From a bacterium (GTDB lineage Bacteria; UBA8248), in contig OZ241996.1 in the NCBI GenBank assembly GCA_965204535.1, forward strand, positions 672,001 to 736,000: a stretch of DNA of 64,000 nucleotides, given 5' to 3'. This document shows, in pieces, positions 16,755-64,000 of this stretch (the first letter of the stretch is position 1; each line of letters opens with the position of its first letter). Made by a program: the position numbers and the translations under genes. The notes beneath the pieces were generated by a model. That model was not told the origin of the DNA, ran no database searches, and saw nothing but the letters and a program-made list of their open reading frames with translations.

Positions 16755-17185
16755 GGGTTGTTGAGAAAGGCTTCTCGCTCGGAATTCAGCTCATCTGCGC
16801 GGCTGCAGACATAGCCCTTGAACAACATTGCCAACCAACGAGAGAGAAGAATCACTCCCCCCTTGAGGGTCTGGCTTCCCGAGGGGAAAGCCAGACGGAG
16901 AGGCCGAGCGGTTTGTGCGAAGGCCGATGCGGTGGGGGGAATATGTAACCACCCGCGTTTTGTGACGTAGGGGCGGCCCCCCGTGGCCGCCCGTATCGAA
17001 GATGTCTGTCCCCGTGGTTGTCCTTCGTCAGGACAGGCACGGGGGCCTGTCCCTACAGCTCTTGCGATTTTGATCGTTATTCCGGCAATCCCTCCCTCCC
17101 CGGTCGGCATTGATTGCCGGAATGACGAACCAATACCCTCCCTCCCCGCCCGGGATCCGTCTTGACGGAACGCGCGGCGGCGCAT
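16755..17185. repeat. Repeat mosaic (GTAG REPs, CGTC-type ATTCCGGC...GGAATGACG hairpins, CCCCCCTTGAGGG units)
   Basis: Segments shared with 17846-17965, 25530-25700 and 26736-26870. Confidence 0.85.
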
Positions 17186-17229
17186 TAGAGTAACGCCTAT
17201 GAGGACCCACTAACGTGGGGGAAAACCGA

Positions 17230-17826
17230 ATGACGGAATACGAAGCCGCAAGCCTCGCCATCCAGGAATCCACACTCGCGCTGCAGGAAGCATCCCTCGC
17301 CATCCAGAAAGCGTCCCTCGCGGCGCAGCAGGCCTCGGTGTGGGTCGCCGCGCTCGTGGGGGCCGCGCAGTGCTCCCTGATCGCCTACGGCCTCTACTTC
17401 ATGCGCCAGGCCGCGCGCCACCGCGACGCCCAGCACCGCGAGACCATGAAGGCGCTCGACAGCCGCCACCGCGAACACATGGAGGCGATCGCCGCCGAGC
17501 GCGAGGCGCAAAAAGATCAGCACCGCGTAACCATGGAGGCGATGGAGCGCACGCACCGGGAGAACATGACGGCGCTCGACAGCCGGCACCGGGAAACCAT
17601 GGAAGCGTTCGCCGCCCAGCGAGAGGATCAAAAAGCTCAGCACGCCGCAACCATGAACGCACTCGCCACCCAGCGCGAAGAGCACAAAGATCAGCACCAT
17701 GAGAACATGGAGGCGCTCAAGGCGCTGCGCGGGGAGCAAAGCGAACAGCACCACGAGAACATGGAGGCGCTCAAGGAACTCATCCGCCGCACCGCTGCGC
17801 CGCCCGACACCCCTCACCCCGAGTAG
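17230..17826 (+). CDS. Membrane-anchored His/Met-rich repetitive coiled-coil protein
   Basis: One TM helix (VWVAALVGAAQCSLIAYGLYFM) then about eight H-R/H-E-x-M-x-A-L type repeats; GC3-rich codons. Confidence 0.75.
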   Translation: MTEYEAASLAIQESTLALQEASLAIQKASLAAQQASVWVAALVGAAQCSLIAYGLYFMRQAARHRDAQHRETMKALDSRHREHMEAIAAEREAQKDQHRVTMEAMERTHRENMTALDSRHRETMEAFAAQREDQKAQHAATMNALATQREEHKDQHHENMEALKALRGEQSEQHHENMEALKELIRRTAAPPDTPHPE

Positions 17827-18306
17827 TCCTGAGCTTGTCGAAGGACGTATCGAAGATGTCTGTCCCCGTGGTTGTCTTTCGTCAGGACAGGCACGGGGGC
17901 CTGTCCCTACATCTCTTGCGATTTTGTTCGTCATTCCGGCAATCAATGCCGACCGGGGAGGGAGGGATTGCCGGAATCCAGAGCCGATGAGGAAGGCAGC
18001 AGCGCCGGACAACCATAAAAACAACAAGACAAAAACGATAAAGCCAAAATCAAATTCCCTGGATTCCGGCGTGCGCCGGAATGACGGCGGGGGCAAACCC
18101 GCCGGAGAGGAAAAGCGGGTTCATCGGATGGCTCTGCGCAGGGCGCGATGGTTCCGTAGGGACAGGCCCCCGTGCCTGTCCGTGGCCCTCGCGCCTTTCC
18201 TGTATCGGGGTGAATACGACCGGCGGGCGGCCACAGGGTCAGACATATATGTCTGACCCCTGCGGCCTCCATTCGAGGGGCGCGCAGGACTTTTTCAACA
18301 ACCTCG
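17827..18306. repeat. Repeat mosaic
   Basis: CCTGAGCTTGTCGAAGG, GGACAGGCACGGGGGCCTGTCCCTAC, CGTCATTCCGGC...GGAATGACG, TTTTTCAACAACCTC. Confidence 0.85.
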
Positions 18307-20829: not shown

Positions 20830-21670
20830 GGGGTTGTTGAAAAGTCCTCTTTGCCAGGGGATAAAGGACAGCCCCTCCTCGGGGCTGTCCTGCCCCCCCT
20901 ACCCCCCTTGTCAGACTTGTTTGCTATCCAGCAGAGAGGATTCACTCCCCCCCTTGGGGCTGTTGAAAAAGCCCTGATGAACGCGGGTTTTGCGCGACCG
21001 AGGAGGGGCGGTTTTGTAGGGGCCGCATACATGCGGCCCTTGTCTTGTAGTGGGCAAAAAAAAATCAGGGTCGCATATATGCGACCCCTACATACAAACA
21101 AATTTTCCTCTCGGGGGTTTTTCAACAACCTCCCCTTGAGGGGGCTGTTGAAAAAGTCCCTGCACACCCCTCGAATGGCGACTGTAGGGGCGGCCCCCCG
21201 TGGCCGCCCGTCGGTCGTATTCATCCAGATACAGCAAGGGCACGGGGGCCTCGGACAGGCACGGGGGCCTGTCCCTACGGTGAACAATTCGATGATCGGG
21301 ATTTCTTCCCCACCGGAGGGTTTTTCAACAGACCCCTCAAGGGGGGAGTGAATCCTCTCTGCTGAATTGCAAACAAGTTTGAAGGGGGGAGTGAATGTAA
21401 AATTCTCCTCGGTGGAGGGAGCAACCCCCCCTACCCCCCCTGACAAGGGGGGGTAGGGGGGGTTGGTTTTGGGGCGAGGTATCCGTAGGGACAGGTCGCG
21501 ACCTCGGACAGGCACAGGGGCCTGTCCCTACAGAAACCACGTAAATCGCAACGACCCGCAGGGGCGGCTTTCCATCGTCATTCCGGGGTTCGGCGGTACA
21601 TAGAAGGGTCGTCATCCGCATATATGTCGGACATATATGACCGCGCAGGAATGACGGCGGTGGTCGATTC
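20830..21670. repeat. Nested repeat cluster (two TGTTGAAAAA-MITEs inside a ~45-bp inverted repeat; several REP classes)
   Basis: Outer IR at 20911-20955 / 21339-21382; MITEs at 20956-21132 and 21141-21335. Confidence 0.85.
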
Positions 21671-21687: not shown

Positions 21688-21900
21688 CTGGAGTCCGATA
21701 ATTGCTATTATCAGAAAATATAACATCTCTCACGGCCATGTCAAGCGCAATTCCGGGGTCCCCGAAGGGGTTTCGGAGGCCGTTTTGCGTCTTTTTTCGC
21801 TTATATTTCGCTTATTTGCGGCCCGAATGCGCCCCGAATCGGGTTTTTCGGCGGAAAACGGGGTTTCTGGGGGCCGTTAATAGCAATTAGCGGTCACCAG
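21688..21900. promoter_or_regulatory. Candidate invertible promoter switch 1 bounded by inverted dif-like recombination sites
   Basis: Left site GAGTCCGATAA-TTGCTA-TTATCAGAAAA (21691-21718); right site GGGGCCGTTAA-TAGCAA-TTAGCGGTCAC (21870-21897); spacers are reverse complements. Confidence 0.75.
21717..21744 (-). promoter_or_regulatory. Sigma70-type promoter inside switch 1, facing away from the lipoprotein gene
   Basis: Minus strand reads TTGACA-N16-TATATT with TGn extended -10. Confidence 0.7.
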
Positions 21901-24831: not shown

Positions 24832-25134
24832 CAGCGAAGAGCAATGACGCCTTTCGCCTCGGGGCTTCACGGCCCCGGGGCCCAAGGCGATATGAGGAGA
24901 GCGAAAAGGGGGTTGCCCGTTGGTTGCTTCTCTCGTGAGAGCAAATTGTACCGCTCCCTGCTGTGAGTTTGAGTCCTCGAGCCGGGAACGGGAACAACGG
25001 GCGGCCCCTGTTTTCGCTTCATGCAGAAAGGCCGGCGCCCCGCTCGGCCGGGCCCCGGACCTCAGGGATTGTGTCGCGGCAACTCCCGCCTTCCGCCGGC
25101 CCTTCGCGGGGTGTCGGCCTTTTTTTCTTGAAAG

Positions 25135-26960
25135 GACAGCCCCTCCTCATCAGGGGATAAAAACAACCCCCCCTACCCCCCCTTGTCAGGGGGGTAAAAA
25201 CAAAAACCCCCCTGAAGCAGTGGGTGTACGATGGTTTTGTAGGTCGGACATATATGTCCGACATATATGCGACCCTGGTTTTTTCCCATTCCAACAATGG
25301 GCCGCATATATGCGGCCCCTACAACAACCGTCCCCTCCCTAATCGCGTGAGACCCTCTTTCATCGGAGCTTTTTCATACCCCCCTGTCAAGGGGGGGTAG
25401 GGGGGGTTATTCCCTCCACCAGGGAGAATCCTAAATTCACTCCCCCTTTCAGACTTGTTTGCTATTCAGCAGAGAGGATTCACTCCCCCCTTGAGGGGTT
25501 GTCCCCTCCTGCCGAAGTGAAAGAATCAACTCCCCCCTTGAGGGTCTGGCTTCCCGAGGGGAAAGCCAGACGAGGAAGCCGAACCGACAGGTGAAGGCTG
25601 ACTCGGTGGGGGGAGTTTTTGTCTGTGGCATGTCCCCCCACCACATCGGCCTTCGCATAAACCGCTCGGCCTCTGTCTGGCTTCCCGAGGGGAAAGCCCG
25701 ACCCCCTCAAGGGGGGAGTGAATATAAAATTCTTCTCGGTGGAATAAGACCCCCCCGACAAGGGGTTGTTGAAAAACCCTGCAATGACGGCAACGAGATT
25801 CCGGCCTGCCGAAGGGAGTGTAGGGGCCGCATATATGCGGCCCGGCGTTGGAAGGCAAAAAGGCCGGGTCGCATGTATGCGACCCCTACACACAAACAAA
25901 TTTTCCCTCGGCGAGGGGCTTTTTCAACAGACCCCGACAAGGGGGGTTACTGCCTTGCCGAAGGGAGTGTAGGTCGGACATATATATCCGACCTACACTC
26001 CGCCTCGTTCTTTCCGAGCAATCGGGCGGACACGTCGGTCCCGGACAACCACGGGGGGTTGTCCCTACGCCCCCGCGGACCCGTAGGGACAGGCCCCCGT
26101 GCCTGTCCGTGGCCCTCGCGCCTTTCCTGTATCGGGGTGAATACGACCGACGGGCGGCCACGGGGGGCCGCCCCTACAACTGCGGCGCGTAATCGCTGTA
26201 GGGACAGGTCGCGACCTGTCCCTACGGGGTGTCGCTTCCCCGGTCGGTTCGATTGCCCTCTCACTTGTTGAAAGGCAACCCCCCCTACCCCCCCTTGACA
26301 GGGGGGTAAGAAAGACCTCTCCCCCGACAAAAAAGGATCAACTCCCCCCTTGAGGGGGGAGTGAACATCAAAGGCGCGCGCTCAACCAAAATCGCTCCAC
26401 GGGGCTGTTGAAGAACCCCTATCCGCCTCATCCTGAGTAGCGGCCCCTCGACTTCGCTCGGGACAGGCTCCGCCGTTGCCCGACACCCCTCATCCTGAGT
26501 AGGCGCGTAAGCGCCGTATCAAAGGTCAAATGCGATTGATGAATGAGCGTTTGCTCTCGCCCAGCGCGAGGCGTTCGACTCCCCTCGCCCTTCGATACAA
26601 ACGCTCCTTTCTCAGTCGCGTCTGACCTTCGGCGGCTACTCAGGGTGAGGAATGAGGCGTTGGCGGTTTGCGGGGGTTACAGACGGGGCCTTTTCATACC
26701 CCCCTGTCAAGGGGGGGTAGGGGGGGTTGGTTTTCCCGTAGGGGCGGCCCCCCGTGGCCGCCCGCATCGAAGATATCCATTCCCGTGGTTGTCCTTCGTC
26801 AGGACAGGCACGGGGGCCTCGGACAGGCACGGGGGCCTCGGACAGGCACGGGGGCCTGTCCCTACTACGGATGCGATTCGGTTTTGTTCGTCATTCCGTC
26901 TTTCGCCGGAATGACGGGTGTTGTGATCTCTCCGGAAGGGTGTCGTAGGGGAGGCTTTCA
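25135..26960. repeat. ~1.8-kb non-coding mosaic of REP-like palindromes and MITEs
   Basis: At least five palindrome families; MITE 25762-25934 flanked by CGACAA direct repeats. Confidence 0.88.
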
Positions 26961-39469: not shown

Positions 39470-40750
39470 CTACCACAACCTCAAGAAAATCGCGGAGGGG
39501 AAGCTCTCAGGCGTAGAAGGAAACATTTTTTTCTTCGCTGGCTTCGGAGATACGGGTTTCGAAGGAACCGTGGTGGGGTCTTCCGTTTTTTCAGAATTAT
39601 CCATGAGAGAAGCCGTAACAGGTGCGCGGCTCGGTGATTTTTCGGGATTCGATTTTATTTTTACTCCCGCGGTATTCACTTTTTTCACGATCTGTTGATT
39701 CGTATCCTGCGGCTTCGCGGGGAGATGATTTCTTTTCTCATGGGTGATTTCTTTTTGAGGCTCTTTGGCTGCAGTAGTGACCACGCTTGCCTGGCGGCTT
39801 CGAATAGCCTGGGTTTTTGGCGCAGGATGCGAGCCGTTGCCGTTTAGCGCCGGTTTCGGTGTTTTCTTTTCGGAATTGGTTTTTTTGACGTTTCGGGTTT
39901 TTTCTTCCGGCGGCTTGGGAGAGGGCCTCGTTTTGGGCTTTCCGGCCTCGAGGCTTCTTTTTTCTTTCAGGATTGGTTTTGTTTTTGCGGGCGCCCGAGT
40001 ATGTTTTCGCGGCGTTTGAACTTGAACCGGCTTGGTATGAATCCTTTTCTGTCCACATCCGCGCAGACGGTCGAGATTCTGGGCGTCCAGGGGCTGAGAA
40101 CACACATCGCGCGCATTCGACTTATGGGCGACTTCTATGCCGTCTATGAACCCATCCCCATCACTGTCGGCGAGGAGCGGATTCAAGCCGCGCGAAATTT
40201 CATCCCCATCGTCGAGCAGGTCGCCGTCCGTATCCGCCTTGAGCGGATTGGTCCTGTACCGGCGGATTTCCAAAGAGTCGGATATTTTGTCCTCATCTGT
40301 ATCAGGATTGTCCGGTTTTGTTTTGTATTTTCGGAATTCCACTATATCGGTGAGGCCGTCGGCATCCGTATCGACGCATTGTTTTCTTTGCATCTTCTCT
40401 TCCGCGCGCTTGATGGCCGCCCGCGCCCTCCTGATGAAACGGGTTAGTTGCGCCATGGTGGCGGTTCTTTTCTCCTCCACCGCCTGATAAACGGCGAAAC
40501 GAGCCACTCCGAAGAGCAGCGGAGCGCAAAGTCCCAAGTCGCCTTTTTGGTCAAGTCGGTCGAATTCACGGGTCAGTTGGGTGAATTCTACTTCAATGGC
40601 GTTTTTCAGGATTTTGACGGAGCTTTCCTTGACTTTGGGAAGAAAGGGGTCGGCGCAGCCGGACAGACTTATTCCCAAAGCGAGCAGAATGAAGAGCGTT
40701 GAAGATCTGAAAAAGTGCTTTTTCGTGTCAGACAATTTCCATATCCTCAC
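39470..40750 (-). CDS. Lipoprotein with DTDxDGLxD (thrombospondin type-3-like Ca-binding) repeats and Lys/Pro-rich tail
   Basis: Lipobox LSGC; repeats DTDADGLTD, DTDEDKISD, DTDGDLLDD, DSDGDGFID; start uncertain. Confidence 0.75.
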   Translation of the reverse strand: MRIWKLSDTKKHFFRSSTLFILLALGISLSGCADPFLPKVKESSVKILKNAIEVEFTQLTREFDRLDQKGDLGLCAPLLFGVARFAVYQAVEEKRTATMAQLTRFIRRARAAIKRAEEKMQRKQCVDTDADGLTDIVEFRKYKTKPDNPDTDEDKISDSLEIRRYRTNPLKADTDGDLLDDGDEISRGLNPLLADSDGDGFIDGIEVAHKSNARDVCSQPLDAQNLDRLRGCGQKRIHTKPVQVQTPRKHTRAPAKTKPILKEKRSLEAGKPKTRPSPKPPEEKTRNVKKTNSEKKTPKPALNGNGSHPAPKTQAIRSRQASVVTTAAKEPQKEITHEKRNHLPAKPQDTNQQIVKKVNTAGVKIKSNPEKSPSRAPVTASLMDNSEKTEDPTTVPSKPVSPKPAKKKMFPSTPESFPSAIFLRLW

Positions 40751-58036: not shown

Positions 58037-58273
58037 TCACAGGCCGTGGCGCAGCCTCGCCATCGCGGCCACGGCCGCCGAGTGCCCCCCCTCGCAGAGA
58101 TCCCCCAGGTACGCCGCTATCCCGGCGTCGGTCTCGGGGTTTCCCGAGCGCTCGAATCCCCTGAGCGCCGTCTCGTACGCCCGCCGCGTGTTCTCAGACA
58201 TCGAGGCCTTCGCCAGGTCGGCGGCCGCACGGGCCGGTCGGGCCGGCCTCCTCGTCAAAGCGATGTCCTGCAT
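58037..58273 (-). pseudogene. Truncated tyrosine recombinase (N-terminal core-binding domain only)
   Basis: ASMSENTRRAY..ALRGF...D..IAAYL..L...G.S resembles integrase/Cre N-terminal SAM-like domains; stops after 78 aa. Confidence 0.6.
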
Positions 58274-58449
58274 CGGGTCGGATGGTCTTGCCCCCGTCGT
58301 CATGCCGAGAAGCCAACCTTCCGGGTCGGCGGCCGTGTCCATTGCCGGGGCCGCTCGAGCGCCTCCTCGATTACCAAGTATGGACGACGGCGGGGAATTT
58401 CCACAAAAAAAGCCGTTTCGCAGGGGAATACCGGCGAAACGGCGGGTTT

Positions 58450-58661
58450 CTGGAGTCCGATAATTGTCGTTATCAGAAAATTTAACACCTCTCACGGCCA
58501 TGTCAAGCGCAATTCCGGGGTCCTCGGAGGGGTTTCGGGCGTCGTTTTGCGCCTTTTTTCGCTTATATTTCGCTCACTTGCGGCCCGAATGCCCTCCGAA
58601 ACGGGTTTTTGGGGGAAAACGGGGCTTCTGGTGTCCCATAACGACAATTAGCGGACTCCAG
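58450..58661. promoter_or_regulatory. Candidate invertible promoter switch 2 bounded by inverted dif-like recombination sites
   Basis: 24-bp IR with 1 mismatch (58450-58473 / 58638-58661); sites GAGTCCGATAA-TTGTCG-TTATCAGAAAA and GTGTCCCATAA-CGACAA-TTAGCGGACTC. Confidence 0.78.
58479..58506 (-). promoter_or_regulatory. Sigma70-type promoter inside switch 2, facing away from the lipoprotein gene
   Basis: Minus strand reads TTGACA-N16-TAAATT with TGn extended -10. Confidence 0.7.
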
Positions 58662-58920: not shown

Positions 58921-60453
58921 ATGAAAATAAGACATCGCATGGAGAGGCTTGCAACCGGAGGCGGCATGGTCCGTCATCCGGAAGAGACCGGCAGAAGCCC
59001 TGGGCGGCCGGCAGGCCCGGGTTTATCGAAGGGCTCCTCCCGTCTTTTACAGGCTCAGGACAGGCCTGACGCGCCCAAGCGCTCACGCGACCGCTTCTCC
59101 TTCCTCATCCCCTGCTTCGCGCTGCTGCTTGTCACGCTCGCCGGTTGCGGCGGTGGCTCGTCTTCCCTCTCGGGCGCGCCGCCCATGGAACCCCCACCGC
59201 CGGTGCACGCGGTGGGCCTGCCCGACATGCACGACCTTTCCGGCTGGCTGACGGCCAACCCCGCCGGCACGGTCACCGTTCCCGCTGGCGAGCACCGCGA
59301 CGTGGGCGGGGTGCGCTTCTTCTGCCCTGCGGGCGGGGCGGACTGCGCGGTGACGGTGACCGCCGAGAACGGGACCGTCGCGGCGACCTCGACGGACGGC
59401 ATGGCCACCGCCATGTTGGCGCCGCCGCCGGTGCACGCGGTGGGCCTGCCCGACATGCACGACCTTTCCGGCTGGCTGACGGCCAACCCCGCCGGCACGG
59501 TCACCGTTCCCGCTGGCGAGCACCGCGACGTGGGCGGGGTGCGCTTCTCCTGCCCTGCGGGCGGGGCGGACTGCGCGGTGACGGTGACCGCCGAGGACGG
59601 GACCGTCACGGCGACCTCGACGGACGGCATGGCCTCCACGATGCCGGTGCCGCCGCATGACCGCTGGGAACATATTTATGACATAGCGGATACACTGCTC
59701 CAATCCAGCGACCACCTTCGTTATACCTTCAACTGGACCGGGCGGGGACAAAGCACAAGCGATCATGTGGTCAATAACTATTCGTGCACTGGATCGCGTT
59801 GCGTCAGCGATGAACGGGTGATTACCGTCGAGGACTTTCGGCATCCGGACAACAGGGTCCAGGTGGCCGTGCCGGCGGAGGACTTGGGATCGCAAGGCGG
59901 GTTTGACACTCTTACGGCCTCGGTCGACGTGGACCTTTCATTTCTCTTCGCGGAGACCACCCTCACGGAGTACCCTTCCTACGACACGTATGGCGTCTGG
60001 GGCCAATACGGTGCCTTACATTTGCAAGTTGTTGACGGACCAATGGCCGGCCAAGTCCAGGGCGTGCCGTTCACGGGCGACCTCAACTATGCAGTCGCGT
60101 TCGTCCTGGGCAATGCCACGGGTACCAACCCACAAGGCACGGGGAGTGCAACCTGGCGTGGCGTTGCCGAGGCCGTCTCGACCAGCACGTTCCAGCGGGG
60201 GCAAGGAACCGCGACACTCACCATCGCAGACCTGTCTCGACCGCGGGTTGGAGTTGACGTCGATATTCCCGGGTTTGCTATCGGCTCGCCCCGTTGGTCC
60301 GACATACCGCTGACGGACGGCCGGTTTGCGACCGGAACCGCCGGAACCGACCGTCTTGAAGGCGATTTCCACGGGCCCGCTCACTACGAAGCCTACGGCG
60401 TATTCGATACGGGCCCTTACGTGGGCGGGTTCGGAGCGAAACGGACCCAGTGA
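58921..60453 (+). CDS. Surface lipoprotein with a duplicated 76-aa domain and C-terminal TbpB-like beta-barrel region
   Basis: Lipobox LAGC followed by GGGSSS; GSATWRG...G.F.GP.H.EA.GVF...GGFGAKRTQ; start uncertain (58921 or 58966). Confidence 0.8.
   Translation: MKIRHRMERLATGGGMVRHPEETGRSPGRPAGPGLSKGSSRLLQAQDRPDAPKRSRDRFSFLIPCFALLLVTLAGCGGGSSSLSGAPPMEPPPPVHAVGLPDMHDLSGWLTANPAGTVTVPAGEHRDVGGVRFFCPAGGADCAVTVTAENGTVAATSTDGMATAMLAPPPVHAVGLPDMHDLSGWLTANPAGTVTVPAGEHRDVGGVRFSCPAGGADCAVTVTAEDGTVTATSTDGMASTMPVPPHDRWEHIYDIADTLLQSSDHLRYTFNWTGRGQSTSDHVVNNYSCTGSRCVSDERVITVEDFRHPDNRVQVAVPAEDLGSQGGFDTLTASVDVDLSFLFAETTLTEYPSYDTYGVWGQYGALHLQVVDGPMAGQVQGVPFTGDLNYAVAFVLGNATGTNPQGTGSATWRGVAEAVSTSTFQRGQGTATLTIADLSRPRVGVDVDIPGFAIGSPRWSDIPLTDGRFATGTAGTDRLEGDFHGPAHYEAYGVFDTGPYVGGFGAKRTQ
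59197..59652 (+). repeat. Intragenic tandem duplication, 228-nt period
   Basis: Near-identical copies start at 59197 and 59425. Confidence 0.92.
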
Positions 60454-60856: not shown

Positions 60857-61100
60857 ATGCATCGATTCATTTCAGCTGATCGATGCCTGCCCGCAATCCA
60901 CGACATGAAGCATCCCGCGAGAAACGATATGAGTTCCGTGACGATGTGACGACCGGACTTTGCCTGCGGATTTTCCAGGGCGGCGGGCACGCCTTAACCC
61001 GCAGCCGTATGGTTCGCCAGCGCAGACGCTGCGCCACCATCGACAACGCCGATACGCCGAGCGTGCCGGCGGCGAGGAGTGGGACTCACAGGCTTTTCCG
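60857..61100 (+). pseudogene. Degenerate integrase N-terminal arm-binding domain remnant
   Basis: REKRYEFRDDVTTGLCLRIFQGGG...RMVR.RRR..TI...SVPAAR resembles P4-type integrase arm domains; frameshifted, no catalytic domain. Confidence 0.5.
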
Positions 61101-61344
61101 CGTGTTTTCAGGGGGCGGGGCGTTTCCAGCGGTTGTAAAATCTCCTGATCCCGTTGATATCATTGAGAAGCATTCATTTCCCCCGGGTCTCGTTCGGAAT
61201 CCACCATTCGCAGCAAGTAATCAAAACGCTAACGAGGGGAATCAAATCCCTGCGCATCCCGGGGCGTGCCTGCCGGTAAGCGTTCGGGCGGGCCGTGATG
61301 GTAGTGCCTTGAAGCAGTAGTTCGGGCCGGAATGGGGGATGATT

Positions 61345-62217
61345 TTACCGGTTGAGGACTTGCTTCCAGTTTCTGCGCAACGGTCGTAGCCAGATGTCCT
61401 TTTTCGGTTGGTCTCGTTTCGTGTATCTGTCGTAGCGTCCACGCCCCTGGGTCATACCGACGTGAATCCACCCCGATGCCCTGTAGACGGCGCCGGTGTA
61501 GCGCGGCGTCTCGACGAAGGTCTCGACGAGGACGGGTGTCGTGCCATAGCGCTCGGTCCAGTCCTCGGGCAGGCGCCTGCGGATGATGGCGAGGAGGTGT
61601 GAGCCGAGGTTGAGGATCCTGATCCATGGCAGGATGAGGAACCTCGGGTTGTCGACCACGAGGGGGAGGTTCTTCTCGCGCAGCTGCGGCGTCCAGCCGA
61701 TGAAGCTGTCGCGCGGGGCGAGCTTCCACGCGGCGGTGGAGAAGCCGAGCATGGCGAGGGGCCTGCCGCCCCGGTCGTGGACGGCGTAGCGCATCTGCGC
61801 GCCGACGAGGGTCTTGTAGCCGAGGTAGTGGTAGCGGGCGACGAACTCGTTCCAGAGCCTGCCCTCGCGGGTTCCGCGCACGGCGACGCGCATATCGAGG
61901 GGGCGGACTTCGTCGAGGGTCTCAGGCGCCGGGATGAGGGGAGGTTCGGTGTCGGGTCCGAAGACGATCGGCCCGGGCCGGTTCTGGCGCCACTTCGGTG
62001 GGGGCAGCGTGATCAGGCCGTCCTTGTGCATGGCCAGCATAGTCACCCGGGCCATCATGTCCTTGAGTCCGCCGTCGGGCTTGTACCAGCCGATTCGGCG
62101 GCAGAACTCCTTCGATAGCGCATGGCGGTTGAGCGCAGGTGGACCTGCGATCAGTTCGCGCAGCAGCGCCATCTCTTCCGTCGTGAAGTCGCGTCCGTGG
62201 TAGCGGCACTCGGTCAC
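61345..62217 (-). CDS. DUF4338 (DruA-like) domain protein
   Basis: YHYLGY...G..MRY, RD.FIGW, N.RFLILPW....NL.S, L.ETFV, G..Y.A.GW...G.T.GRG. Confidence 0.88.
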   Translation of the reverse strand: MTECRYHGRDFTTEEMALLRELIAGPPALNRHALSKEFCRRIGWYKPDGGLKDMMARVTMLAMHKDGLITLPPPKWRQNRPGPIVFGPDTEPPLIPAPETLDEVRPLDMRVAVRGTREGRLWNEFVARYHYLGYKTLVGAQMRYAVHDRGGRPLAMLGFSTAAWKLAPRDSFIGWTPQLREKNLPLVVDNPRFLILPWIRILNLGSHLLAIIRRRLPEDWTERYGTTPVLVETFVETPRYTGAVYRASGWIHVGMTQGRGRYDRYTKRDQPKKDIWLRPLRRNWKQVLNR

Positions 62218-62221
62218 GGCG

Positions 62222-64000
62222 TCATCCCGGCGCCGTGAGGGCGCGCCTGCGCTCCGTGCTCATCGACCAGGGCAGCCACGCGGAGAGGTCCCCGGGCGCC
62301 CGGCCGCCGTTCTCCGCGCAGGCCGTGAGCCATGCCTCCAGCCAGCGGAGCGGGTCGACCCCGTTCGACGCGAGGGTTCCGAGGACCGAGTACATCATCG
62401 CCGTAAACCTGGCGCCGGCCTCGCTGTCGGAGCCGAACGAGAGCCGCCTGCCGATCACAGGGCCCCGAAGCGCACGTTCGCTGGCGTTGTTATCCATCGG
62501 CACCGAGGGGCGTTCGATGAAGACGCTCAGCCCCTCGCGGTGGTTCAGCAGCGAGCGAAGCGCCTTGCCCTCGCGCGCCTGCGCGGGCAGAGCGGCCATC
62601 TCCCGTCGGGCCTGCGCGAACAGGTCCTTGAGCGCCTTCTTCAATTCGTCGTGCGCCGCGTCGAACGCCGCATCCTGGCGTTCGACGCCCGGGTCGTAAC
62701 TGGCCAGGCGCGCCTCGTTCAGGCGGTAAAGCAAGGCAATCCGCTCGATCCATCTCTCGCACCACGGCGTCAGCCGCTCATCGCCGGCGGCGCAGTGGAT
62801 ATAATCGCGCCGGACGTGACTCCAGCACCATGCGAGAGTCACCAGACCCCCGGGAATGCGCGCCAGCTTCTTGTAGGCGCTGTAGCGGTCGCAGACGATG
62901 ACCGTATGGGAGCCGGCCGCGCCGAACAGCTTCATCGCGACCTCAGCACTCCGCGAGGGGTCGACGTGGAAGTAGACGGAGTCTGCGCTGACCGAGGTCC
63001 ACAGCCAGGCGCGGCTCGAGCGTCCTTGTTCGCGAAGCGACTGAACGCGCCACGTCGTCTCGTCCCCGTGACGCACCGCCGCTTCGTTCTGGCGGTCGAG
63101 GATCGCCGCAGCCAGCGGCTCGAAGAGCGGCGTGAAGCGGTGCGTGCTGTCGCCCAGTGTGCCTGCAGAGACCGGAAGCCCCTGGTCGGAGAGCCACGCG
63201 GCGACCCGGCGCAGCGGGCGGAAGCAGGCGTAGCGCTCGAACAGGAAGCGCGCCCACACGCTCGTCCCGTAAGGCGTGCCCGCGAACAGGCGCGGCGCGG
63301 CGGGCGCCGACACTTCCACCGGAGACGACGCGCACGCGCATCTCCTGCGCCATCTCGGACGGCGGATGACGCGCTTGTGGGCCGAGACTTCGATCTCGAA
63401 GATGGAGGAGACCTCGGCGCCATTGGCCACGTAGGGCTTCCCGCAACCGGCGCAGACGCGCGCACCGGCCGGCGGGTTGCGAACTTCGGTCCTCTCATCG
63501 AGCGCGGGCCGCGGGGTGCGGCCATGACCGGCGGCGCCGGGTTGCCGGCCGCGCCTGCGCTCCGAGCGCGGCCTCTCCTGCCGTTCGCTCTTGCGCCCGA
63601 ACAGTCTTCTCGCCAGCACCGCTCCGGTGGCGCGAAGCTTCGCGAGATCGGCCTCCAGCCGCGCCCGGATGGTCTCTGACTTGCGGAGCGCCCTGCGAAG
63701 ACGCCCGTTCTCCCTCGACAGCGACCTGAGCGCCGTCTTCTGGCGCCGCGACCTCCCCAGGGCCTTGCGCAGTTCCTCATCTGCACGAGACGGCGACTTC
63801 GAGCGCGCCGCCTCGAGAGCGCGCAGCAACCGCGCCTTCAGCCGTTCGGTCGCAATGCCTACGGCCCCCAGGGAGACTTCAAGACGGTAGACCTCCGCAG
63901 ACAGCGACTCGACCACCTCCGCCTGGTCGCGCAATCGCCTCAACTTCCTGTAGAGCCCGATGGCCTCCTCGTCCAGGCTCCGAATGGTCTCCTTGTCGGT
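62222..64000 (-). CDS. tnpC: IS66 family transposase (5'-truncated by window edge)
   Basis: LFGRKSE, GH.R, CxxC Zn finger, DET, CDRYSAY, CW.H.RR, DNN.SERALR; long coiled-coil N-terminus open to the window edge. Confidence 0.93.
   Translation of the reverse strand, partial: TDKETIRSLDEEAIGLYRKLRRLRDQAEVVESLSAEVYRLEVSLGAVGIATERLKARLLRALEAARSKSPSRADEELRKALGRSRRQKTALRSLSRENGRLRRALRKSETIRARLEADLAKLRATGAVLARRLFGRKSERQERPRSERRRGRQPGAAGHGRTPRPALDERTEVRNPPAGARVCAGCGKPYVANGAEVSSIFEIEVSAHKRVIRRPRWRRRCACASSPVEVSAPAAPRLFAGTPYGTSVWARFLFERYACFRPLRRVAAWLSDQGLPVSAGTLGDSTHRFTPLFEPLAAAILDRQNEAAVRHGDETTWRVQSLREQGRSSRAWLWTSVSADSVYFHVDPSRSAEVAMKLFGAAGSHTVIVCDRYSAYKKLARIPGGLVTLAWCWSHVRRDYIHCAAGDERLTPWCERWIERIALLYRLNEARLASYDPGVERQDAAFDAAHDELKKALKDLFAQARREMAALPAQAREGKALRSLLNHREGLSVFIERPSVPMDNNASERALRGPVIGRRLSFGSDSEAGARFTAMMYSVLGTLASNGVDPLRWLEAWLTACAENGGRAPGDLSAWLPWSMSTERRRALTAPG

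Follow-up and report, generated by a model that had tools for sequence, protein, structure and literature searches.

The two switches in the window, the 64,000-nucleotide stretch analyzed here, probably belong to a set of 17 paralogous promoter switches, in which lox-like sites sharing one spacer bound each switch, a Cre-like recombinase flips the promoters of surface genes, the match between the two spacers of a switch arises through inversion, and insulation between switches is a leaky by-product. The Cre-like, multi-copy family of promoter switches is real, and its spacers evolve in concert and change fast. The concept of a spacer code is itself not new, and the uniqueness of such a code fails here.

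Structure and distribution of the cassettes

Each of the two cassettes in the window consists of two inverted 28-bp sites with an 11-6-11 layout (Table 1). The cassettes are 88% identical, and their A sites stand in direct orientation relative to each other, 36,762 bp apart. Re-reading confirmed to the base that the arms of site A are the same at both loci, as claimed in the preliminary description, and that the spacer pairs are TTGCTA/TAGCAA at switch 1 and TTGTCG/CGACAA at switch 2. These spacers differ at three of six positions (C/T, T/C, and A/G, all transitions), and the three differing bases are mirrored at site B. Among the 236 arms of the family only about eight positions per arm are conserved, gene-side arms being more degenerate, and G occupies arm position 7 in 235 of them. 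Outside the 12-bp core TAA-N6-TTA and one invariant arm position per side, the arms of A and B are mostly non-complementary. GATA flanks the spacer in the cassette sites, and the cassette arms lack 13-bp palindromic half-sites of the lox type.

Table 1. Features of the two switches and of the adjoining genes (window coordinates)
Feature	Position	Strand	Remarks
Switch 1 site A	21691-21718	+	28 bp; spacer TTGCTA at 21702-21707
Switch 1 predicted sigma-70 promoter	21717-21744	-	points away from the switch 1 gene
Switch 1 site B (inverted)	21870-21897	-	same spacer, read TAGCAA at 21881-21886
Predicted lipoprotein at switch 1, 901 aa	22126-24831	+	Ala-rich stalk; C-terminal part resembles TbpB-type barrels (Atlas lead only)
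HTH_17 protein, 239 aa	57288-58007	+	converges on the recombinase gene; accompanies many module copies
Cre-like recombinase remnant at switch 2	58037-58342	-	internal deletion; 0/5 catalytic motifs left
Switch 2 site A, recombinase side	58453-58480	+	11-bp arm / 6-bp spacer TTGTCG (58464-58469) / 11-bp arm
Switch 2 invertible segment	58470-58641	.	172 bp between spacers; flipped family members exist
Switch 2 predicted sigma-70 promoter	58479-58506	-	TTGACA, 16 bp, extended -10 (consensus prediction); points at site A
Switch 2 site B, gene side (inverted)	58631-58658	-	same spacer TTGTCG, read CGACAA at 58642-58647
Predicted surface lipoprotein downstream of switch 2	58921-60453	+	lipobox LAGC, poly-Gly; start codon uncertain

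The -35 box of the predicted promoter is invariant in all 59 cassettes compared, and at switch 2 the predicted start falls in the inner arm of site A. Since the promoter faces site A, away from the gene, the orientation present in the window is predicted to be OFF for the lipoprotein gene. In the common orientation, found in 15/17 cassettes of G000 (the genome holding the window, 4.56 Mb in two contigs, C1 and C2) and in 13/16 cassettes of its sister genome G002, the promoter would face the recombinase side and leave the surface gene OFF; after flipping it is predicted, on sequence grounds, to read into the surface gene and turn it ON. Most genes downstream of the cassettes encode long lipoproteins that have a lipobox and a stalk rich in Ala. 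For the switch 2 lipoprotein no match was found in Pfam or PDB, and the relation of the lipoprotein C-termini to PF01298 (0.90-0.92 in Atlas, with no Pfam match) serves as a lead only. One Slam (SlipAM) gene is present in G000.

Several other features of the window were recorded. Just past the switch 2 lipoprotein (window 60883-63943) lie a DruA-like gene (61345-62217, minus strand) and a gene for an IS66-family transposase (62222-63943, minus strand). A 426-aa protein with bacterial TSP3 repeats is encoded at 39470-40750 (minus strand) and matches a model of a calcium-binding domain weakly and below the cut-off. Dense intergenic clusters of short palindromic REP-like repeats occupy positions 398-640, 16800-18300, 20900-21550, and 25100-26900.

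The G000 genome contains 17 paralogous cassettes of about 200 bp, and in all 17 the same spacer word is found at both ends; when the B spacers were permuted among these loci (20,000 permutations), the mean number of matches was 1.48 and the maximum 8. In G002, 15 of the 16 cassettes are matched, and ten other genomes contribute 26 cassettes, all matched, which gives 58/59 cassettes with 23 words in 12 genomes. This count leaves out a cassette with a 7-bp spacer (L043), one unfetched match in G003, two partial matches, a lone site, and the paired sites in more distant recombinase-homolog loci. The 7-bp spacer of L043 is also matched at both ends, and so is that of L091, a cassette in a same-class genome located approximately 460-650 bases upstream of the recombinase gene. 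The sole mismatched cassette of the 59 (L063) is a mosaic of two copies and hence not a clean example of a fresh single-mutation intermediate. In total, the cassette is present in 13 of the 41 genomes searched, G000 included, and in 11 of 22 same-genus relatives.

Gain and loss of cassettes and exchange between them are evident from comparison of the two sister genomes. Neither window cassette was found at the colinear place in G002, and only four of the 16 G002 cassettes have a counterpart in G000 (three with both flanks colinear, one with one flank). The cassettes are mosaics, in which the flanks, inner segment, leader, and gene each have a different nearest relative; thus the loci exchange DNA, whether by homologous or site-specific recombination. 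Inner segments at orthologous loci are closer to paralogs than to each other, implying that matched words are also carried from locus to locus by whole-cassette gene conversion.

Two further loci on C2 were noted. The cassette at C2:1583260 looks hybrid, its recombinase-side flank being 96% similar to that of C2:567348 and its inner segment 98% similar to that of C2:376847; the two parts are joined at or close to site A. The lone site at C2:561243, composed of a gene-side arm, the spacer TCGTTA, and a site-A inner arm, is 6.1 kb away from C2:567348, a flipped cassette with the word TCACTA, and forms a direct repeat with it; between them is a tandemly duplicated gene for a 901-aa lipoprotein, and an IS110-like transposase gene is located just beyond.

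Inversion and the recombinase

The preliminary description had interpreted the sites as tyrosine-recombinase crossover sites of invertible segments, and comparison within the family bears this out. The inner segment is reversed relative to the flanks in 7/59 cassettes, with joins at the spacers. Moreover, one locus is found in both orientations: G000 C2:2207100 and G002 L075 have both flanks in common and opposite orientations, which implies that inversion at the spacers has occurred. Neither of these two cassettes adjoins a recombinase gene. As in other invertons, inverted sites enclose a predicted promoter and both orientations occur with joins at the sites, the evidence for the latter coming from the family and not from the two window loci. 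Contigs from two sequencing runs span site B of switch 2 in the window orientation, and among the read-set contigs examined no flipped form was assignable to switch 2, contigs being apt to drop rare variants; an opposite-strand joint in contigs of X1 and X2, not assignable to switch 2, is probably derived from a flipped paralog.

Contig C1 starts and ends (C1:1 and C1:1593653) inside the spacer of one cassette. The join of its ends is colinear in three relatives (G002, G011, and G008), and at this join the 5-kb module with its cassette is missing from the colinear G002 site. These ends would fit an assembly break caused by mixed orientations. Excision of C1 as a circle between two TTGCTG cassettes is ruled out, since its ends are neighbors in the same three relatives. 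On the other contig, the GC skew of a 0.94-Mb block (C2:567500-1503000) has the wrong sign for the position of dnaA (C2:1869878), which suggests either a large inversion or a mis-join. The C2 skew minimum coincides with the C2:567348 cassette, and a cross-locus inversion was considered; it is unsupported, as the curve is flat around its other turn, where no cassette is located.

The flipping enzyme is likely a Cre-like recombinase and not XerC/D, judging from gene content and site layout. A full tyrosine recombinase gene lies beside site A at 8 of the 17 G000 cassettes, where it is read away from site A, one intact copy being that at C2:462231-461254; two cassettes have remnants and seven have none. 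The best PDB matches of this recombinase are to Cre (E 2e-13), and all eight full copies contain all five tested catalytic motifs and the Cre set R, K, H, R, W, Y. Its scores are 35-47 bits with XerC/D models (cut-offs near 330) and 18-23 bits with models of tyrosine-type DNA invertases (cut-offs near 221). A target site is found within 1 kb of the recombinase gene, as in Cre-type systems. Among 41 genomes, 12 have both cassette and recombinase, one the cassette only, three the recombinase only, and 25 neither, although related genomes in this sample are not independent.

Homologs in other lineages show a similar arrangement. A single site of this type is located just upstream of the homolog gene, in the cre-lox layout, at four loci (L099, L100, L102, and L119) on records titled Binatia, Terriglobia, and Longimicrobiales. 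In three Latescibacteria loci (L106, L107, and L108), an inverted matched site pair, with its own word in each, precedes a gene for a large secreted or surface protein. Close recombinase homologs were also found on records titled Nitrospinota. A 23-kb record that bears the label chromosome 2, and that may be a plasmid concatemer, contains three equal-scoring homologs (L101, L103, and L104).

The proposal that a recombinase acts in trans on both window switches is likely to be correct, since neither has an intact local enzyme (no recombinase gene adjoins switch 1, and only a remnant adjoins switch 2) and orphan cassettes are seen flipped. The switch 2 remnant retains the N-terminus and the last nine residues; similar internal deletions of the recombinase were observed at C2:2391237, at C2:905719, and in G002. 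The HTH_17 protein, which has 13 matches genome-wide, is a candidate regulator or directionality factor.

Origin and specificity of the spacer words

In the preliminary description the spacers were regarded as locus-specific addresses, expected to match within a locus and to differ between loci. Tabulation over all copies upheld the first part of this expectation (58/59) and not the second, because words are reused: 13 words serve the 17 G000 cassettes, four of them twice, and eight words serve the 16 G002 cassettes, one of them at four loci. A unique address per locus is thereby ruled out. Nonetheless, most cassette pairs differ in the spacer (132/136 in G000 and 105/120 in G002), many of them by just one transition; in G000, 32/136 pairs are a single base apart. 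Shared words are not significantly rarer than chance, with 4/136 pairs against 6.7 expected in G000 (P 0.145, permutation), 12/120 against 15.0 in G002 (P 0.195), and 71/1711 against 73.2 for all 59 cassettes. No pair within 200 kb shares a word (0/21), and avoidance of shared words by distance is non-significant at all five distance cut-offs (P 0.15). The deficits lie in the direction expected under avoidance, with P of 0.15-0.2. The cores thus likely keep most copies from recombining with one another, yet they are not unique per copy. As for the two window switches, the earlier suggestion that spacer mismatch blocks recombination between them is sound on the evidence that 3/6 bases differ, which should block it if the enzyme is Cre-like in behavior. 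Overall, the insulation between loci is real but appears as a leaky by-product.

The spacers diverge faster than their surroundings (0.37 versus 0.11 for inner segments; 0.38 versus 0.16 for 4-fold sites of linked recombinase genes, and 0.38 versus 0.10 in close pairs). This exceeds the prediction of plain drift, though the 4-fold sites compared are GC-constrained. Compared with the inner columns, spacer positions 3-6 fall in the top 7%. Transversions constitute 20% of spacer changes versus 36% of inner-segment steps (P 0.01). In all four orthologous pairs, the spacers differ by one base, at both ends, although four changes in 24 spacer bases are not significant against the inner-segment divergence at these loci (8-12%).

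We propose that a homotetramer of the recombinase occupies all four degenerate arms, that the enzyme would act in this way on orphan cassettes in trans, including both in the window, and that strand exchange would require matching spacers. In tyrosine-recombinase chemistry, staggered cuts leave each product spacer as a heteroduplex. The available part of a recent study of Clostridioides difficile likewise describes heteroduplex product spacers (PMC12282940). If an inversion is, on rare occasions, completed across a one-base mismatch, the Watson strand would end up with the same allele at the two ends and the Crick strand with the alternative allele, so that a single round of replication, or same-strand repair, would then yield two identical spacers. 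In this way a new word would spread from one end of a locus to the other, while different loci would diverge. Such copying by inversion would explain why new words occur at both ends and why the 7-bp variant is matched, and also the lean towards transitions, which is expected if tolerated mismatches are the route. Whole-cassette gene conversion could move words between loci but should be unable to create new matched ones, and we infer that the best account of the matching is inversion itself, which would transfer a new spacer letter from one end to the other. The covariation, previously considered the strongest evidence of function, thus retains its value as a sign that the sites recombine, since it points to past inversion; selection for an address is not needed to account for it.

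The preliminary description had named XerC/D as a possible enzyme, and flipping by the host XerC/D, as at dif-like sites, with the Cre-like gene a mere passenger, would suit the 11-6-11 sites, the presence in the host of a XerD gene (above cut-off) and a XerC-like gene (just below cut-off), and the 7/17 cassettes with no adjoining recombinase. In addition, the XerC half of a dif candidate at C1:1394748 in G000, near the GC-skew maximum of C1 and conserved in G002, resembles the cassette arms. However, the arms are XerC-like only, with no XerD-type half-site among all 236 and a nearly invariant G at position 7, the Cre-like family adjoins the sites, co-occurs with them across genomes and has them directly upstream, lox-like, in other phyla, and the recombinase itself scores far below the XerC/D cut-offs; we consider this explanation very unlikely. 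In two Latescibacterota genomes, the frequency of dif candidates did not exceed that of a control pattern. It is extremely unlikely that the sites serve mainly for movement of the module (integration, excision, or resolution) with incidental flips, as the paired sites are inverted rather than direct, lie within the module, and enclose an invariant promoter directed toward or away from the surface gene; such movement would account for the absence of the window cassettes from G002, the few shared loci (4/16), the single-site loci in other phyla, and the hybrid-looking C2:1583260, joined at site A. Pairing of the spacers in a structured RNA with no DNA inversion has a practically negligible probability: the fold of the switch 2 cassette RNA has a z of -4.2, as an inverted repeat would give, whereas flipped copies have joins at the spacers, most arm positions outside the 12-bp core are non-complementary between A and B, no Rfam match was found over the cassettes, and the transcript would carry one spacer only, because the predicted promoter starts inside site A.

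A selected address code operating with the Cre-like enzyme, in which selection removes same-word cassettes, especially nearby ones, and spacers diversify actively, is another reading that we judge unlikely. It is consistent with the differences between most pairs in both genomes, the lack of shared words within 200 kb, spacers outpacing linked 4-fold sites, the high rank of positions 3-6, and the one-base change at both ends of all four orthologous pairs. Genes of ilvD-like, terpenoid-synthase, and sulfite/nitrite reductase type lie in the 37 kb between the window switches, and hence deletion of this interval is likely costly. On the other hand, neither the deficits of shared words nor the effect of proximity is significant, and the same holds for the orthologous spacer changes; one word recurs at four G002 loci, nearly a quarter of the G000 pairs are one base apart, and the lone site C2:561243 has the same word as a cassette 99 kb from it. 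A broader conjecture, combining selection with copying by inversion, would see the family as a self-writing natural library of orthogonal lox sites: inversion copies the letters, every duplicated switch gains its own address without a second mutation, selection purges same-word neighbors, and one Cre-like family runs 16-17 surface-antigen switches independently, the whole having originated in inverted duplication of a cre-lox site. We offer it tentatively and think it rather doubtful.

Comparison with known systems and implications

Invertible promoters of surface molecules are known from several bacteria. The fimS element of E. coli is inverted by FimB and FimE, which belong to another recombinase family, and the mpl sites of Mycoplasma penetrans have a similar core with a variable centre. 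As described in the available text of PMC2268961, the dispersed surface lipoprotein genes of M. penetrans are each thought to be independently switched by an invertible promoter of their own, as in the family described here; the recombinase candidates there are Xer1-like, whereas here the family is Cre-like. Local and distant flipping of surface-molecule promoters by one recombinase is likewise a property of Mpi, Tsr0667, and Tsr19 of Bacteroides fragilis; these belong to other recombinase families, and a spacer code is not mentioned in the part of PMC4747536 available to us.

The closest parallel is C. difficile, where a "spacer code" against cross-recombination was proposed in 2025 for six RecV switches (PMC12282940, available part). 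Both systems combine several switches, one tyrosine recombinase activity, degenerate arms, and a 6-bp spacer that is matched within a switch and differs between switches. According to the same source, however, the six RecV switches are non-paralogous and have a unique spacer each, and RecV has no N-terminal DNA-binding domain; in the present family, words recur among 16-17 paralogous promoter cassettes, the enzyme is a full Cre-like protein encoded by many gene copies, and sister genomes differ in their spacers through turnover. With Cre/loxP the family shares the catalytic residues R, K, H, R, W, Y, the proximity of target and gene, and GATA adjoining the spacer, a reported feature of active Cre-type sites (PMC10250229 and PMC11260471, in the parts available). 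In place of the 13-bp palindromes of loxP, the family has short, degenerate arms, and a promoter is enclosed by two inverted copies of the site, which makes the arrangement a phase switch and not a resolution site. We found no paper on a Cre-like switch family or on inversion-driven spacer copying in a literature search that covered mostly open texts.

How one recombinase can serve many switches and leave the chromosome unscrambled has yet to be settled, the spacer code of C. difficile RecV being a proposal at this stage. With its 59 natural site pairs and 23 words, its orthologous loci at which the word has changed at both ends, and an enzyme close to Cre, the present family makes both the code and the copying route directly testable. 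For genome engineering it may also supply a new recombinase together with existing heterospecific sites. For the organism itself, an uncultured lineage whose association with sponges is a lead only, the findings suggest large-scale phase variation of surface proteins.
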